From assembly GCA_044222185.1 (NCBI GenBank), contig JBGANV010000003.1, forward strand, positions 192,001 to 256,000: DNA of 64,000 nt. The letters are read 5' to 3'. The notes below the pieces were generated by a model. It saw nothing but the letters and a program-made list of their open reading frames with translations, had not been told where the DNA came from and did no database searches. This stretch comes from Planctomycetota bacterium (GTDB taxonomy: Bacteria > Planctomycetota > GCA-002687715 > CAIWVZ01). A program made the translations under genes and the position numbers. Each line of letters starts with the position of its first letter. Within the stretch, counting starts at the first letter, position 1. This document shows, in pieces, positions 19,222 through 26,432 of the stretch.

Positions 19222-19653
19222 GGCGCGCGGCCGGGTTCGATTCGCCGCGCGCACGGCGGAGGCGGCCGGAGCGGCCAGGACACCGCGCAAGCCACGGATC
19301 GCTCGGCGCCGCGTCATGCCGGCCCCGAATCCGCGCCATGGGTTTGCCGAGGGGCTCGGCTCAGTGCCGCACCTGGCCGCAACTGAACGCGCCCACGGCA
19401 TTCATCGTGGCGGCGAACGCGGATCCCCGCTCTCGGGGTCGCAAGACTCGCGACGCGACGCCGAGTTGGGAGCCGCGGACGAGGTCGCGAACTCAGCGAG
19501 AGCGAAGGCCGTGTGGGGTGCCGCGGAGCCATCCGAGGTTGGCAGGACTCCGGCAATCGGCCGCGAACGTCCTCCGGCGTCCTCACTCGGACGAGCAGGC
19601 CGGAAAGCAACGAGCCCCGGCCGGATCCAGAGATCCAACCAGGGCTCGTTGAG

Positions 19654-19727
19654 CGAGGGTGACGGGACTCGAACCCGCAACCACCAGATCGACAGTCTGG
19701 TGCGCTAACCAATTGCGCTACACCCCC
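19654..19727 (-). tRNA. tRNA-Asp (GTC), CCA not encoded
   Basis: GGGGGTGTAGCGCAATTGGTTAGCGCACCAGACTGTCGATCTGGTGGTTGCGGGTTCGAGTCCCGTCACCCTCG: 7-bp acceptor stem, D-loop GG, anticodon GTC, GGTTCGA T-loop. Confidence 0.97.
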
Positions 19728-19774
19728 GGGGCGCACGCCTTCGACGACGGGGTCCGCCGCCAAAAGAGGGCCGC

Positions 19775-19802
19775 ATCATAGCGGCGGCCATCAGCCGGAC
19801 AA
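19775..19802 (-). promoter_or_regulatory. Sigma-70 promoter of tRNA-Asp
   Basis: TTGTCC-N16-TATGAT followed by a GC-rich discriminator (GCGGCCC), typical of stable-RNA promoters. Confidence 0.6.
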
Positions 19803-19917
19803 GGGCACCGGGATCGGGCGGAATGCACGGTTGGAATCCACGGGTGTGACGTTCAGGAACGAACCGGCCTCCCGGATCCGGAGGGTTTCGCGCAGTCGCG
19901 CGGCCTCCGGAGATGCC

Positions 19918-22900
19918 ATGAGGATCACGTCCATTCTGCTCGTGTCGCTGGCCGCCGCGGCTTCGATGACGGCTCAGACCGGTTCCGTCATCCCCGACAG
20001 CCAGATCCCCCGCGATCAGGTCCAGCGCGACTGGGTGAATTTCGAAACGCACCCCATCCAGCCGATCGCGTTGTCGAACGACCAGAGCCTGTTGATGTGC
20101 ATCAACCAACCGGCAGGACGGTTGGTGATCTTCAACGCGGCCGATCGGTCGGTGTCGGGTGTCGTGAGGACCGGCCCGGGCGTGGTGAGCGTCGTGCCGC
20201 GACCAGGGACGAACGAGGTGTTCCTCGTGGACGCCGTCGCCGGCGCGGTGTCGGTGCTGGACCTCGGGCTGCGATCGATCGTCAAGACGATTCGCGTCGG
20301 AGCGCAGCCACACGGACTCGTGTTCACGCCCAGCGGTGACCGCGCGTACGTGGCATGCTCAGCCATCGACAGGGTCGACGTGATCGATCTGCGCACGGGA
20401 TCGGGAACCGCGTACGGCGTCGTGAATCAAATCGCCATCCCGGCCAAGAACCCTCGCGCCATCGCCTACCTCGGCGGGAAAGTCTGGGTCGCGTCGCTGC
20501 TCTCGGGCAACAACACGTCGGTCGTGTCCCCGGGAGCCAACCCGGGCGCCACCTCGGTGAAGAAGGTCACGGCGCAGAACGGCGGGTCGGGGTTCCAAAG
20601 CCCGCTGCCCGACCGTGACATCCTCGCGATCACGCCACATCCCACGAATCCGGCGCTGGACGTCCTCGACCCGACCGCGACGGTGACGGCAGTGGGCACG
20701 AGCCTGTTCAATCTGCACGACGCCGCGGGTGCGCTCTGGGTGCCAAACACCGACGCGCTGAACGCAGACGTGATCGGCGAGAAGAACTTCGTCGGCGGGC
20801 AGGTGGTGAGGAACCAGCTCACGAAGGTGACGATTCCGGGCGGCGCGACGACGGTCTATTCGCTCGACCTGCCGCCAGCGGGCAGTGCCCCCTGCGCCCA
20901 GCCGACGGGGATGGCATACGACCCGGTGAACGGAAGCCTGTTCGTTTGCGGATATGGCAGCGACACCGTCGCCGTCCTGAATGCGTCGACGGGGACGTGG
21001 CGTGGACAGGTCGCACTCCCCGCGGCCCCCGGGTTCCGCACGGGGCCACGGTGCGCGCTCTACGACTCGACCCGGAAACTGGTCTACGTCCTGAACAAGG
21101 CCGCCGACACGCTCAGCGTCATCGACGCCGCAGCGACGCCGACGCTGCTCACGACGGTGAGCCTGGGATTGGATCCGACTCCGGCTCCGATCAAGCGCGG
21201 GCGTGGCCACCTCATCAACGCCAATCACTCCCTCTCCGGCACCGGCTCCTGCGCGTCCTGCCATGTGGACGGACACCTGGACGGTCTCGGCTGGGACTTG
21301 TCCGCGTTCCTCGACCCGGTCGGCACGCAGACGCCGATGTACGAACAGGACCGGAAGGGGCCGATGGTCACCCAGAGCCTGCGCGGCCTTCGCGAGACGC
21401 TCCCCTACCACTGGCGTGGCGAGCGCGCGACGCTCGAGTCGTTCAACCCGGCCTTCGTCGGACTTCTCAAGCGCCCGCAGGAATTGACGTCAGCCGAGTT
21501 CGCGGACTTCCGCGCGTACATCGAGAGTCTGACGTACTCTCCCAACCCGCGCCAGTCGTCCGATCGGACGTACACGACGACTCAGAGGATGGGAGCCGCC
21601 ATCTACATGTCGACGCCGGTCGTCAGCAATCTGGCCTGCAACGGCTGTCACGCGCTGCCGCTCGGCACGCAGGGAGAACCGCTGTTCGACGTGCCCGGGA
21701 ACGAGCTCTCGCGGTCCTTCGTCGTGCCGCACCTGCGGGGGGTGGTCGACAAGCTGTCACCGGCGTTCTTCGTGGGAGGCAACTTCCAATACCGGCCGGA
21801 AACGGGCTTCGGCCTCCTTCACAGCGGCTTCTTCGCAACGCTGGAAGTGCTGACGCCTTTGCAGGCGAACGGCGACTTCATGAGCCTCTTCATTCCGCTC
21901 TCGCAGACCGAGCGGACCCTCGTCGGAGGCTTCGTCTCCGCGCTCGACACGGGGCTCGCCCCCGCAACGGCTTTCCAGGCGACGGTCAACCAGCAGAACG
22001 CGGGCTCGTTCTCGACGGACCTCACCTATCTCACGAGCCAGGCCGATCTCGGCAACTGCGACATCGCCGCGTTCGCCAACTTCCGCATCTCTCCAACCCA
22101 GAGCGTCAAGCGTGGGTACGCCTACGATCGGACCTCGCACCAGTTCTGGTCGACGACGATAAGCGAGGGACTGAATCAGCCGGCGCTGCTCGTCGGGCTC
22201 GCGAGCCTCGGCATGGGTGAAGTGACCTTCGTCGGCTTGCCCGTGGGCATGGGGTGGCGTTTCGGCGTCGACGAGGACATGGATTGGTTGCAGGACGACG
22301 ACGAGGCGGCCCGCGGATGCAACGGCGACGTCTCGGACAAGGACCTGGACGGGTTCCCCGACGGTTGGGAAGTCGCCCGCGGGATGAACCCGACGCAGTT
22401 CGACTCCTCGGCGAACGACACGCAAGCCCCCGTGATCTTCGGAGCGCAGCTCGTCTACCAGACGACGAACGTGGCGAAGTACCGCGTCGACACGAGCGAG
22501 CCGACGCGCCTCCTCGTCACGACGACCGTGAACAACGTGACGACGAGCACGGTGGTGAGTCCTGCGGATCCGGGCCCCGACTTCCAGATGTCCCACATGG
22601 TCGTCGTGCAAGGGCTGTCCGCAGGTCAGGCGGCGACGATCTCGATCCAGGCCACCGACCCCGCGGGAAACTCGTCCGCTTCGTCCGTGAGCCTGGTCGC
22701 ACAGTCGCAGAACTTCCCATCCCTCCACGTCGGATCGTTGACGGTCCAGGTGACCACCGACCCGGCGAGCCAGACGGCGACGGCGACGATCCAGGTGGGC
22801 GTGGCGTCCGAGACGGGCGCCTTGCTCGCCAACATGAACGTCGAGGCCCGGATCTACCTCGAAGTCGGCGGAGTGCTGACCGAGCCGTTCGCGACGCCGT

Positions 22901-23082
22901 CGAACCACATGGTGACGGCGGCCAACGGGATCGCGACGTTCACGGGGACCTTCACGCTGCCGCCCCCGAACAATCGGAAGCTCCACGTCGCCGTGTGGGA
23001 CGTCTCCGAGCCCGTGTTCCCACCGGTTCGAGCCTACGTCGAAGCCCGCGACGTCCTGAACTACGCGAACGCGGGATTCTGA
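19918..23082 (+). CDS. Secreted YVTN/YncE beta-propeller fused to a diheme cytochrome c (peroxidase/MauG-like) region and C-terminal Ig-like domains
   Basis: Signal peptide ending MTA-Q; propeller repeats (VGAQPHGLVFTPSGDRAYVA); CASCH and CNGCH heme motifs; DKDLDGFPDGWE Ca-binding-like repeat. Confidence 0.85.
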   Translation: MRITSILLVSLAAAASMTAQTGSVIPDSQIPRDQVQRDWVNFETHPIQPIALSNDQSLLMCINQPAGRLVIFNAADRSVSGVVRTGPGVVSVVPRPGTNEVFLVDAVAGAVSVLDLGLRSIVKTIRVGAQPHGLVFTPSGDRAYVACSAIDRVDVIDLRTGSGTAYGVVNQIAIPAKNPRAIAYLGGKVWVASLLSGNNTSVVSPGANPGATSVKKVTAQNGGSGFQSPLPDRDILAITPHPTNPALDVLDPTATVTAVGTSLFNLHDAAGALWVPNTDALNADVIGEKNFVGGQVVRNQLTKVTIPGGATTVYSLDLPPAGSAPCAQPTGMAYDPVNGSLFVCGYGSDTVAVLNASTGTWRGQVALPAAPGFRTGPRCALYDSTRKLVYVLNKAADTLSVIDAAATPTLLTTVSLGLDPTPAPIKRGRGHLINANHSLSGTGSCASCHVDGHLDGLGWDLSAFLDPVGTQTPMYEQDRKGPMVTQSLRGLRETLPYHWRGERATLESFNPAFVGLLKRPQELTSAEFADFRAYIESLTYSPNPRQSSDRTYTTTQRMGAAIYMSTPVVSNLACNGCHALPLGTQGEPLFDVPGNELSRSFVVPHLRGVVDKLSPAFFVGGNFQYRPETGFGLLHSGFFATLEVLTPLQANGDFMSLFIPLSQTERTLVGGFVSALDTGLAPATAFQATVNQQNAGSFSTDLTYLTSQADLGNCDIAAFANFRISPTQSVKRGYAYDRTSHQFWSTTISEGLNQPALLVGLASLGMGEVTFVGLPVGMGWRFGVDEDMDWLQDDDEAARGCNGDVSDKDLDGFPDGWEVARGMNPTQFDSSANDTQAPVIFGAQLVYQTTNVAKYRVDTSEPTRLLVTTTVNNVTTSTVVSPADPGPDFQMSHMVVVQGLSAGQAATISIQATDPAGNSSASSVSLVAQSQNFPSLHVGSLTVQVTTDPASQTATATIQVGVASETGALLANMNVEARIYLEVGGVLTEPFATPSNHMVTAANGIATFTGTFTLPPPNNRKLHVAVWDVSEPVFPPVRAYVEARDVLNYANAGF

Positions 23083-23151: not shown

Positions 23152-24339
23152 ATGCCCCGCGCCGTTCAACGCACGCCGAGCCTTGCCTCCATCCTCGCAA
23201 CGACCGCCGCCCTGATCTTCGCCTGGCTCTGCACGAGCTGTCAGTCGCCGTCGACGCCGCCACCGACTCCGACGCCGCCGAGCACGATCATCGTGGGAAC
23301 CCAGCAGCCGGAGTCGGCCGGTGGGATTCTCACGCTCGCGCTCGAAGGTGCGGAACGCGGCGCGCAGCGCTCGGCGCTCGCGGGCGTGGCGAAGCCGACG
23401 TTCGTGCACCGCGTGGCGTCGCGCAACATGCTCGTCGTGGCGAGCGAGGTCGGCGACGTGAAGCAAGGCCGTGACGGTGCCATCGTGACCGTCGCGTGCG
23501 CTTCCGACGGGACGCCCGCGCGCGTCCTCGGGCGGGCGCCCTCGGGCGGCGCCGGTCCGTGCTCGCTCGACGTGACGGAGGACGGCCGGTGGGTCGTCGT
23601 CGCGAACTACGGTGGTGGAAGCGTGGCCGTGCTCCCGATCGACGACGCCGCTGCGCCGAGGGCGCCGACCGCGATCGTCCGACACGACGGCCGCGGTGCC
23701 GTCGCAGGTCGTCAGGACGCGCCGCACGTGCACGACGCGCGCTTCGCCTCGAACGGGCGCTTCGTCGTCGTCGCGGACCTCGGGATCGACCGTGTCCTCG
23801 TCTACCGCTTCGATCGCGATCACGGCACGCTCACGCCGCATTCATCGCCGGGAATCGACCTGCCGCCCGGCTCCGGCCCCCGCAAGATCGCCTTCCACCC
23901 TTCGGGCAAGTGGATCTTCGTCGCCTGCGAGCTGTCGAACACCGTCGCCACGTGCGCATGGGATGAGGCCGCGGGCGCACTCACCCTCGCCGCGAGCGTC
24001 TCGACACTGCCGGAAGGCTTCGAAGACAGGAGCTTCGCCGGGGACGTCCTCGTCTCCGAGGATGGCCGGCGGCTCTACGTCAGCAATCGCGGAAACGATT
24101 CCATCGCCACGTTCTCGGTCGACGCCGGAACCGGCGGGCTGAGTTTGCTGGCGCACACCGCGAGCGGGGGGAAGTTTCCGTGGAGCCTCGCTCTCGACGG
24201 CGCGCGCCGGCTGCTCTTCGCCGCGAACCAGGGTTCGAACGAAGTCGTCGCATGCGAGCTGGACCCGACGACGGGCGTGCCTGGCGCGGCACGACGATTC
24301 GCCGAGGCGACCCGCCCCACGTCGCTCGCGCTCGAGTAG
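23152..24339 (+). CDS. Lactonase family protein (6-phosphogluconolactonase/YbhE-type 7-bladed propeller)
   Basis: ANYGGGSVAV, RQDAPHVH, ADLGIDRV, GSGPRKIAFHPSG, LYVSNRGNDSI, GGKFPW; lipoprotein-like N-terminus (WLCTSC). Confidence 0.9.
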   Translation: MPRAVQRTPSLASILATTAALIFAWLCTSCQSPSTPPPTPTPPSTIIVGTQQPESAGGILTLALEGAERGAQRSALAGVAKPTFVHRVASRNMLVVASEVGDVKQGRDGAIVTVACASDGTPARVLGRAPSGGAGPCSLDVTEDGRWVVVANYGGGSVAVLPIDDAAAPRAPTAIVRHDGRGAVAGRQDAPHVHDARFASNGRFVVVADLGIDRVLVYRFDRDHGTLTPHSSPGIDLPPGSGPRKIAFHPSGKWIFVACELSNTVATCAWDEAAGALTLAASVSTLPEGFEDRSFAGDVLVSEDGRRLYVSNRGNDSIATFSVDAGTGGLSLLAHTASGGKFPWSLALDGARRLLFAANQGSNEVVACELDPTTGVPGAARRFAEATRPTSLALE

Positions 24340-24415
24340 CGGCGATGGCGTGGATCGCACCGGCGCCAGCGACCGACCGTCGGCGACGACTCGTACACGA
24401 CCAGGACCCCAGGGC

Positions 24416-24455
24416 AAAAAAAAGGTCCCGCCGCACCCGAAAGTGCGGCGGGACC
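24416..24455 (-). terminator. Rho-independent terminator oriented for a minus-strand transcript
   Basis: 13-bp perfect stem GGTCCCGCCGCAC/GTGCGGCGGGACC with 8 A on its left side (U8 on the minus strand). Confidence 0.85.
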
Positions 24456-24715
24456 ACGCAGCCTCGCCTCGCACACGGCTGGTCGCTTCCGCGACCAGCC
24501 TCCCTCCAACGTTTCTTTCCCCAGGAGTCCTTCCTCACGAAGCTCCTGAGCACGCCTGACGTTGTCCGTTCGTTCGCGGCCTTTTGGGCCGCAGGAGTGA
24601 TCTCCGCGAGACCTCGTCGATCACTCCCGTGAGCTTGTTCTCGGAACGCATCGAACTGACTTGAGGGACGGCGCCGAACCCGGACGAGTCGCCGTTGGAA
24701 CGCCGGATCCGGGTT
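24416..24715 (-). ncRNA. Putative structured non-coding RNA (5' end uncertain)
   Basis: Hairpins at 24477-24500, 24522-24548, 24576-24592, 24594-24627 and 24677-24715 lead into the minus-strand terminator; no convincing minus-strand CDS. Confidence 0.55.
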
Positions 24716-24857
24716 GGAATACTGGCGGCCGACCCGCAAGGTTGGGCCTGTCGCTGCCCGGCACCGTGCCGACGCACCGGACGAAACCAGCACGGATCGA
24801 AGCCTTTTCCCGGCCCCAGGCGTCCCGTGTGGACGCCCCGGAGCCGGCGCGACTCCC

Positions 24858-26432
24858 ATGGCACAGAACATCAAGACCCGCGCGGCCGATTACGCGCAGT
24901 GGTACCTGGACGTCATCAATGCCGCCGGCCTGGCCGACTACTCACCCGTCCGCGGGTGCATGGTCATCAAGCCGCACGGCTACGCCATGTGGGAACAGCT
25001 CCAGAAGGAGTTGGATCATCGCTTCAAGGCGACGGGCCACGTCAACGCCTACTTCCCCGTCTTCATCCCCATGAGCTTCCTCGCCAAGGAAGCCAAGCAC
25101 GTGGAAGGGTTCGCCATGGAGTGCGCCGTCGTGACGCACGCCGGATTGGAGCCCGACGGCGAGGGCGGACTCCGCCCCAAGGGCAAGCTGGAAGAGCCGC
25201 TCATCGTCCGCCCGACGAGCGAGACGATCATCGGACACATGTACGCCCAATGGGTCCAGTCGTGGCGCGACCTGCCGATCCTCATCAACCAATGGGCGAA
25301 CATCGTTCGCTGGGAGATGCGCACGCGCCTCTTCCTGCGGACCATGGAATTCCTCTGGCAGGAAGGACACACCGCGCACGAGACGTGGGAAGAAGCGGAG
25401 GCGGAGACGCGCCGCATGCTCGACGTCTACTCGGACGTCGCGCAGAACGTGCTGGCGATCCCCGTGATCCGCGGCCGGAAGACACCCAGCGAACGCTTCG
25501 CCGGCGCCGACGACACCTACTGCATCGAAGCGATGATGCAGGACGGCAAGGCGCTCCAGGCGGGAACCAGCCACAACCTGGGACAGAACTTCGCGAAGGC
25601 GTTCGACATCAAGTTCCAGACGCGTGACCAGCAGGTGGCGCACGTCTACACCACCTCCTGGGGTGTCACGACCCGGCTCATCGGGGCCGTGATCATGACG
25701 CACTCGGATGACGAAGGCCTGGTCTGCCCGCCCGCCATGGCGCCGGTGCTGCTGGCCATCGTCCCGATCTACCGCAAGCCGGAAGAGCGGGACGCAGTCA
25801 TCGCCTACGCCCGCCGGCTCCTCGCGCAGATCGCCGGAGAGGAAGCCGTCGCGCGCGCAGAGGCCGAGCGCGGCAACCAGGAGATCCTGAACGTGAACCT
25901 GGGCGGCGCCCGCGTGGGACAACGCGTGGTGCTCGATCTGCGCGACGGCCTCCGTCCTCCGGACAAGTTCTTCTGGTGGGAGCAGCGCGGCGTGCCGATC
26001 CGCTTCGAGGCCGGTCCGAAGGACCTCGCACAGGAGAGCGTGATGACCGTGCTCCGTCACACGCGCGAGAAGGCGCCCATCAAGGCCGTCGACATCTCGC
26101 ACACCTGGTTCGAGGCCACGCTCGCTCGGATCCAACAGGCCCTCTTCGATCGCGCCGTCGCGTACCGGAAGGACCACACGTGGATCTGCGACAGCTACGC
26201 CGAGTTCAAGGACAAGATCGAATCGCAGCCGGGTTTCTACCTGATGCACTGGGACGGCACCGCCGAGACGGAAGCCCGCATCAAGGAGGAGACGAAGGCC
26301 ACGATCCGCTGCATTCCCCTCGCCGACACGTTGGACACGGCGGGCGGTGAAGTGAACCTCAGGACGCCCGGAACCGACCCCATGTCGGGCAAACCATCGA
26401 ACGGGCGCGTGATCTTCGCTCGCGCCTACTGA
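24858..26432 (+). CDS. proS: Proline--tRNA ligase (archaeal/eukaryote-like type)
   Basis: YSPVRGCMVIKP, VRPTSETI, QWANIVRWEMRTRLFLRTMEFLWQEGHTAH, QAGTSHNLGQNF, C-terminal FARAY. Confidence 0.97.
   Translation: MAQNIKTRAADYAQWYLDVINAAGLADYSPVRGCMVIKPHGYAMWEQLQKELDHRFKATGHVNAYFPVFIPMSFLAKEAKHVEGFAMECAVVTHAGLEPDGEGGLRPKGKLEEPLIVRPTSETIIGHMYAQWVQSWRDLPILINQWANIVRWEMRTRLFLRTMEFLWQEGHTAHETWEEAEAETRRMLDVYSDVAQNVLAIPVIRGRKTPSERFAGADDTYCIEAMMQDGKALQAGTSHNLGQNFAKAFDIKFQTRDQQVAHVYTTSWGVTTRLIGAVIMTHSDDEGLVCPPAMAPVLLAIVPIYRKPEERDAVIAYARRLLAQIAGEEAVARAEAERGNQEILNVNLGGARVGQRVVLDLRDGLRPPDKFFWWEQRGVPIRFEAGPKDLAQESVMTVLRHTREKAPIKAVDISHTWFEATLARIQQALFDRAVAYRKDHTWICDSYAEFKDKIESQPGFYLMHWDGTAETEARIKEETKATIRCIPLADTLDTAGGEVNLRTPGTDPMSGKPSNGRVIFARAY

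Follow-up and report, generated by a model that had tools for sequence, protein, structure and literature searches.

The window analysed here is a 64-kb stretch of contig C7 of a metagenome-assembled genome (MAG; G000 below), which measures 7.08 Mb in 16 contigs, is 93.8% complete and comes from an uncultured sludge planctomycete. Between a gene of the lactonase family and proS, both on the plus strand of the window, lies a gap of 518 nt. With little more than even confidence, we read the minus strand of this gap as an independent, lineage-specific gene for a small non-coding RNA (sRNA), a species-level orphan directed away from proS. From its sequence we infer an RNA of ~210-300 nt, which would start within ~24628-24700 and end at an intrinsic terminator at 24416 (coordinates are those of the window). 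A first-pass annotation of this DNA had proposed a novel sRNA here, possibly a sponge for the protein CsrA; the non-coding gene with its own terminator survives as the best reading, whereas the sponge had to be given up. The parts of the unit are as follows, listed from the 3' end of the predicted RNA; U3 is an sRNA encoded elsewhere in the genome and described below.

24416 to 24423, minus strand: U8 tract, the intrinsic terminator tail and predicted RNA 3' end.
24424 to 24455, minus strand: terminator hairpin of 14 pairs (11 of them G-C) with a 4-nt UUCG-type loop; its sequence is unique in the genome.
24456 to 24476, minus strand: linker of 21 nt between H4 and the terminator.
24477 to 24500, minus strand: hairpin H4, 10 bp with a GGAA tetraloop (GNRA-type), unique in the genome.
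24501 to 24521, minus strand: purine-rich linker GGGAAAGAAACGUUGGAGGGA(GG), containing the Shine-Dalgarno (SD)-like GGAGGGAG, complementary to CUCCCUCC of U3.
24522 to 24548, minus strand: hairpin H3, with CAGGAG/CUCCUG as outer and CUUC/GAAG as inner stem; it contains GAGGAAGGA, complementary to UCCUUCCUC of U3.
24549 to 24575, minus strand: linker with the common motif AACGGACAACG (24570-24560) and then UCAGGCGUG (24559-24551), the latter complementary to UACGCCUGA of U3.
24576 to 24592, minus strand: hairpin H2, GCGGCC-CAAAA-GGCCGC.
24593 to 24628, minus strand: hairpin H1, a 9-10 bp stem with a 16-nt loop, likely the 5' domain of the RNA and unique in the genome.
24638 to 24665, minus strand: block CTCAAG-N14-TCCGAGAA, found with the same spacing in the sister genus; a candidate promoter region (weak -35, -10-like GAGAAC) picked out by eye.

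The terminator, a 14-bp stem followed by U8, exists on the minus strand only; on the plus strand, the hairpin is followed by ACGCAGCC and by no U tract. The first-pass annotation had described a minus-strand terminator of 13 bp plus U8 between two plus-strand genes, with four stacked hairpins upstream, and both descriptions were borne out apart from the length of the stem: H1-H4 are all present in the minimum free energy (MFE) fold as well as in the centroid fold. In the MFE fold, an ACGUUG/CAACGU helix closes part of the purine-rich linker at 24501-24521. The folding z-score was -4.16 for 311 nt and -4.98 for the 177 nt that remain when the terminator is excluded, in each case better than all shuffled sequences. 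The unit is also rich in GGA, as had been noticed earlier (about 10 triplets in about 200 nt): we counted 10 in 195 nt and 11 in 235 nt, where the window mean is 4.8 (standard deviation 2.1), which places the unit in the top 0.4-0.6% among 65,282 genome windows of 217 nt, and its five GGAG fall in the top 0.85% of genome windows. DNA searches found the unit in a single copy in the genome. The hairpins H0, H1, H3 and H4, the terminator and the purine linker were each unique within 2-4 mismatches, and the 17-nt H2 had seven matches at 2 mismatches. Because it is single-copy and its hairpins are unique, the unit does not resemble a REP/REPIN-like repeat. Contigs from sludge metagenomes (four DNA runs; two other studies) contained pieces over the gap that were identical to it or differed by one letter. 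The sole variant within the RNA, 24587 G>A on the plus strand, replaces C-G by U-G in H2 and thus keeps the pair, at a depth of 2 that is too thin to use.

To see how such terminators are used in this genome, we searched both strands of G000 for stems of at least 9 pairs followed by a T-rich run, defined as 6 or more T in 8. Only 34 of the 369 T-rich runs in 7.08 Mb qualified as strong terminator-like sites. In the mirror control, a hairpin followed by an A-run, 10 of 370 did, so that the true orientation was 3.4 times commoner. By a crude criterion for open reading frames (ORFs), 12 of the 34 terminators lie at most 100 nt behind a co-oriented ORF with a high GC content at third codon positions (GC3), six lie 100-210 nt behind one, and 16 have no co-oriented ORF within 300 nt. 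Twenty of the other 33 sites were run through Rfam: one closes the rRNA operon (23S/5S) and another a tRNA in the same orientation, and two further terminators end U2 and U3, sRNAs with order-wide conservation. This genome thus has few canonical terminators, and those it has go with the ends of real transcripts, a number of which are stable RNAs. The terminator of the proS-divergent unit is among the strongest of the genome, and because strong terminators are both rare and non-randomly used, it most likely ends a real transcript of ~210-300 nt. About a dozen of the ORF-less terminators are candidate 3' ends of further sRNAs.

We compared the locus with those of relatives, including two genomes of the sister genus (G001 and G004) and another genome of the same family (G002). 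In all four family genomes with an assembled proS 5' flank, that of the window among them, 300-520 nt without an ORF run divergently from proS. Each of these stretches ends with a T-run behind a hairpin of -29 to -32 kcal/mol, and the T-run starts 297 nt (G001), 298 nt (G004), 513 nt (G002) and 435 nt (window) from the proS start. Next to the unit in G001 and G004, and in the same direction, comes a tRNA-Asp(GUC) gene with its own sigma-70-like promoter and terminator; since this next gene is co-directional, the first terminator there cannot be the end of a convergent gene. The sister family, f3, and relatives further away have a protein gene next to proS instead, and a tblastn search for remnants of such genes in the gap found none. 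Read by eye, the window and G001 share the block CTCAAG-N14-TCCGAGAA and an order of elements, namely GAGGAAG, a stem, an A-rich linker, GGAGGGAG, a hairpin, ~20 nt and the terminator, which we treat as leads only. The pattern GAGGAAG-N12-32-GGAGGGAG is not rare in itself: it has 18 matches in 23 genomes, and its reversed control has 16. The sole match in G001 is its proS-adjacent unit, and as the pattern was derived from the sequences of the window and G001, this is no independent test.

The gap shows no coding signal. Its candidate frames have a GC3 of 0.60-0.71, compared with 0.86-0.89 in the flanking genes, and their translations resemble the noise expected of a high-GC genome. One such frame, an ORF of 38 codons (MRSENKL...) on the minus strand at 24535 to 24651, was judged non-coding (GC3 0.67). 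A small-protein gene consisting of this ORF (24651-24535), or of a 109-codon frame that encloses it, is very improbable: the frame is open from its ATG, but GC3 (0.67-0.71) stays below that of real genes, no Shine-Dalgarno sequence precedes it, the product is arginine-rich like high-GC noise, the counterpart units show no common peptide when read by eye, and the stop lies inside H3, 80 nt ahead of the terminator. The 38-codon ORF had already been held the less likely explanation in the first-pass annotation, and we agree.

No known RNA family was recognized either. At the gathering score, Rfam had no family at the locus, with tmRNA, RNase P, SRP, 6S and Csr/Rsm included in the search, in line with the earlier remark that tmRNA, RNase P and SRP signatures are missing; the comparison with Rfam by Infernal that had been suggested, 6S included, thus returned no family. 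When matches with E up to 10 were admitted over 24200-25000, generic hairpin matches appeared and no Csr/Rsm, riboswitch, T-box or leader family did. The best near-miss was asX1 (RF02235), an sRNA of Xanthomonadaceae, with 26.7 bits against a gathering score of 70 and E 0.087; the GGAA-loop hairpin and the terminator after it align to asX1, and membership was rejected because the score is carried by generic hairpins. 6S RNA (RF00013) was rejected as well, as its model has no match at the locus and the fold here is multi-hairpin, whereas 6S is rod-like with a central bubble. The best 6S candidate of the genome lies elsewhere, at G000:C1:77549-77724 (+), with 42.1 bits against a gathering score of 46.4 and E 1e-6.

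When the stretches upstream of orphan terminators were compared, the 11-nt motif AACGGACAACG, located in the linker before H3, emerged. With at most one mismatch it has 105 matches in the genome; two of these fall in the 33 other terminator-upstream stretches, where 0.064 would be expected (Poisson P 0.002, in a partly post hoc test). The motif is shared with U2 and U3: 5 of the 12 U2 rows have it, as do 4 of the 11 U3 rows, with the genome's own copy counted in each, and the proS-adjacent unit of G002 has it too. Neither U2 nor U3 matched a family in Rfam. Both lie outside the window.

G000:C1 ~1580998-1581180, plus strand: sRNA U2, matched in 17 of the 23 genomes of the order.
G000:C7:297423-297598, plus strand: sRNA U3, matched in 22 of the 23 genomes of the order.

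Most U2 orthologues have a sigma-54 promoter, TGGCAC-N5-TTGC, and RpoN (sigma-54) is encoded in G000; the 3' core of U2, AAGCAAGUGUUGGGUGAUAGUUCC, is invariant over its 24 nt, and an intrinsic terminator is also present. In two U2 orthologues ~12 nt separate AACGGACAACG from the -12 box upstream of it, which puts the motif at the 5' end that is predicted for U2, in the manner of a seed. U3 consists of a 15-bp long-range stem, with three covarying pairs, around a pyrimidine-rich loop of ~40 nt that is invariant in 11 aligned sequences, and most orthologues end in a hairpin and then a T-run. Within this loop is the anti-SD heptamer CCUCCUU; the 16S rRNA of G000 itself has this heptamer and ends in CACCUCCUUUCU. 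The 60-nt core of U3 occurs three times in identical form in G000, the other copies being at C1:811000-811078 (+) and C6:918561-918631 (-), and a terminator follows just one of the copies. A further copy of AACGGACAACG, at G000:C14:158062 (+), precedes by 2 nt the ATG of a lipoprotein-like signal peptide, MRSIQSALRIGLWLTAAAGASWALGC (translated by eye), and the motif may therefore also be present in mRNA leaders.

Several observations weigh against an independent RNA gene at this locus. The complementary plus strand folds with equal significance (z = -5.17), and because the hairpins fold as well on that strand, the assignment of the unit to the minus strand comes solely from the U tract. The scan for sigma-70 promoters returned no site for the RNA unit, and the gap contains no sigma-54 promoter within 2 mismatches. 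The motif AACGGACAACG had been noticed before it was tested, and the MFE fold pairs parts of it and of the purine linker with each other. Sequence conservation is also lacking: a DNA search of 60 relatives gave no match outside the window's own genome, nhmmer found no homologue of the gap, and none of 80 genome and 80 metagenome loci beside relatives of its ProRS (best identity 71% and 70%, respectively) carried gap-like sequence. Global alignment of the window with the counterparts gave z-scores of -0.1 for G001, -1.0 for G004 and 2.7 for G002 (6 of 300 shuffles as good), and pairwise local alignments were at noise level apart from a putative proS promoter. A covariance model, R1, built from the single sequence 24416-24548, ranked the counterparts top among 15 loci, at 28, 21.3 and 13.3 bits, but other terminators reached 16 bits in those loci and 17-25 bits genome-wide. 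Because the alignments are at noise and the R1 scores fall within the terminator background, we do not claim homology between the unit and its counterparts. The MAFFT alignments (A1 and A2) were non-structural, and no covariation was drawn from them. The search for homologues upstream of proS that the first-pass annotation had recommended thus yielded positional, ORF-free counterparts in three family genomes, while homology was not established.

There are two alternatives to such a gene. In the first, nothing here is dedicated to making an RNA; the hairpin would serve the lactonase gene and the proS promoter region as a (bidirectional) terminator or insulator, and the other hairpins would be selectively neutral GC-rich intergenic palindromes. 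The lactonase stop codon only 85 nt before the hairpin, the equally significant folding of the plus strand and the absence of sequence conservation past the species all agree with this, and we consider it unlikely. What speaks for an RNA gene instead is that the plus strand has ACGCAGCC and not a U tract after the hairpin, that the analogous terminator of G001 and G004 precedes a co-directional tRNA gene so that no convergent gene needs it, that the unit and its hairpins are single-copy, and that sites with a hairpin and a U tract outnumber their mirror images 3.4-fold. In the second alternative, the element works in cis on the plus strand, as a long structured leader of proS or a 3' untranslated region of the lactonase gene, with pyrimidine-rich segments that resemble the U3 loop. 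The plus strand not only folds significantly, it also carries CUCCCUCC, UCCUUCCUC and ACGCCUGA in the order of U3. However, the U8 tract is on the other strand and no riboswitch, T-box or leader family matched. A proS leader would in addition exclude the element, since the predicted proS promoter (24695-24723) lies downstream of it on the plus strand. Overall, a plus-strand element appears quite improbable.

The GGA-rich, multi-hairpin appearance of the unit had suggested a sponge of the CsrB/RsmZ type. It does resemble CsrB, CsrC and RsmX/Y/Z in being a predicted free-standing gene for a multi-hairpin, GGA-rich RNA of ~200 nt with an intrinsic terminator, and about 7 of the 11 GGA in 235 nt are unpaired, in loops or linkers, when the fold is read by eye. 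However, the CsrA domain (Pfam PF02599) was found in none of the 23 genomes of the order, that of the window included; 13 of these are at least 90% complete, and the positive controls of the search (E. coli, B. subtilis and T. maritima) were all detected. Looking for csrA had been part of the first-pass proposal, and the result goes against it. The GacA/UvrY box has the consensus TGTAAG-N6-CTTACA. Within 3 mismatches no such box is near the locus, and the whole window has two (32189 and 53616), compared with 2.1 expected. Motifs of the A(N)GGA kind are few (just 3 AGGA and 3 ANGGA); the GGA of H4 sits in a GNRA-type tetraloop, and no covariance model of a Csr/Rsm family matched. The richness in GGA was not seen in the positional counterpart of the sister genus, whose sequence was read by eye. 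Because CsrA is absent from the order genomes searched and there is no GacA box, we reject the CsrB/RsmZ reading, in membership as well as in the CsrA mechanism, and consider its chance to be close to nil. Hfq and ProQ were also searched for in the lineage, and neither was found.

If the unit is an sRNA gene, its RNA would most likely be a trans-acting riboregulator that works by base pairing, independently of CsrA and Hfq. One candidate surface would be AACGGACAACG, which lies between hairpins, is common to U2 and U3 and is seed-like in one of them. The other would be the SD-like purine tracts GAGGAAGGA and GGAGGGAGG, which could pair with pyrimidine-rich partners. OmrA/OmrB and Qrr1-4 are trans-acting base-pairing sRNAs with a seed common to sibling sRNAs. 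The unit is like them in being a predicted free-standing gene with a Rho-independent terminator and in having a single-stranded motif in common with otherwise unrelated sRNAs of the same genome. It differs from them in that Hfq and ProQ were not found here and the motif is internal rather than at the 5' end.

A special case of the preferred sRNA reading is that the RNA serves as a sponge or decoy, whose exposed SD-like tracts titrate U3 or, alternatively, 30S subunits. The U3 loop contains UACGCCUGA, UCCUUCCUC and CUCCCUCC, to which three segments of the RNA, UCAGGCGUG, GAGGAAGGA and GGAGGGAG respectively, are complementary, colinearly and in antiparallel orientation. The duplex calculated by RNAduplex, at -35.7 kcal/mol, ranks among the best 0.07% when compared with 10,894 genome windows. 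The counterparts of G001 and G004 also beat most shuffled sequences (8 and 6 of 300 as good, respectively). The invariance of the U3 loop, the covarying stem that encloses it and the 3' end of the 16S rRNA fit such pairing. However, the affinity is mostly a matter of purine composition, as 11 of 300 dinucleotide-shuffled RNAs and 7 of 300 shuffled loops equal it, and RNAduplex permits large internal loops. Cofolding of the full-length RNAs gave a ddG of -4.7 kcal/mol, no better than that of an antisense control (-6.8) or of U2 with U3 (-3.5). No signal came from the G002 unit (equalled by 56 of 300 shuffles), and the complementarity equally means that the plus strand resembles U3. SroC and the chbBC-spacer sponges likewise have several accessible sites complementary to a conserved region of another sRNA, but the complementarity here is marginally above the expectation from composition. 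Known sponge RNAs of the SroC and chbBC spacer type are mostly processed from mRNAs or tRNA spacers. We therefore view titration of U3 or of 30S subunits as improbable. If it did occur, three purine-rich sites capturing the anti-SD-like loop of U3 would amount to translational control by an sRNA and its anti-sRNA without CsrA, Hfq or ProQ, in a circuit that adjoins proS and is perhaps co-regulated with it.

The interest of the proposed sRNA gene lies in its host. Regulatory RNAs of Planctomycetota are almost unknown, and none of CsrA, Hfq and ProQ was found in the lineage; Table 1 of a 2022 review (PMC9029176) lists 8 annotated sRNAs for the whole PVC group, compared with 345 for Proteobacteria. 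If the RNA is real, it would offer, together with the sigma-54-driven U2 and with U3 and its invariant anti-SD-like loop, an entry point to riboregulation through other partners. From this locus alone the gain is modest, as the unit is a species-level orphan.

The genes and sites around the unit are the following.

24858 to 26432, plus strand: proS, coding for an archaeal/eukaryote-type ProRS of 524 amino acids (aa); divergent neighbour of the unit.
23152 to 24339, plus strand: gene for a lactonase-family 7-bladed beta-propeller protein, the convergent neighbour; its stop is 85 nt from the terminator hairpin.
24695 to 24723, plus strand: predicted proS promoter, sigma-70-like TTGGAA (24695-24700)-N17-AATACT (24718-24723), overlapping a fifth hairpin.
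19653 to 19727, minus strand: tRNA-Asp(GUC), 4.7 kb from the unit.

The start of proS is backed by full-length protein matches that begin at residue 1, and the nearest named relative of its ProRS belongs to a Planctomycetota MAG (71% identity). In G002 the counterpart of the proS promoter reads TTGGGA-N17-GATACT, in the same arrangement. The sole above-noise local alignment between the window and G002 (score 30; shuffles had a mean of 22.8, a standard deviation of 2.7 and a maximum of 35) is best read as this promoter. Since the proS promoter overlaps there, we excluded the fifth hairpin (~24677-24715) and most of 24650-24715 from the RNA. The interval 24416-24715 of the first-pass annotation is consequently sound for the unit itself, and its 5' end, ~24677-24715, is probably not part of the RNA and belongs to the proS promoter.

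The tRNA-Asp gene is separated from the unit by two plus-strand genes (19831-23082 and 23152-24339), the first of which encodes 1083 aa. In the sister genus (G001 and G004) tRNA-Asp lies ~190 nt behind the proS-divergent unit. To judge from this gene order, it looks like an insertion of 4.6 kb separated two neighbouring RNA genes, the unit and tRNA-Asp, in the lineage of the window. About 45 nt upstream of tRNA-Asp in the window (19728-19790, minus strand) there is a sigma-70-like TTGTCC-N16-TATGAT, and in G001 the same place is occupied by TTGTGG-N16-TAGACT. Because promoter-like sites precede tRNA-Asp in both the window and G001, this lineage appears to use near-consensus sigma-70 promoters for stable RNA genes.

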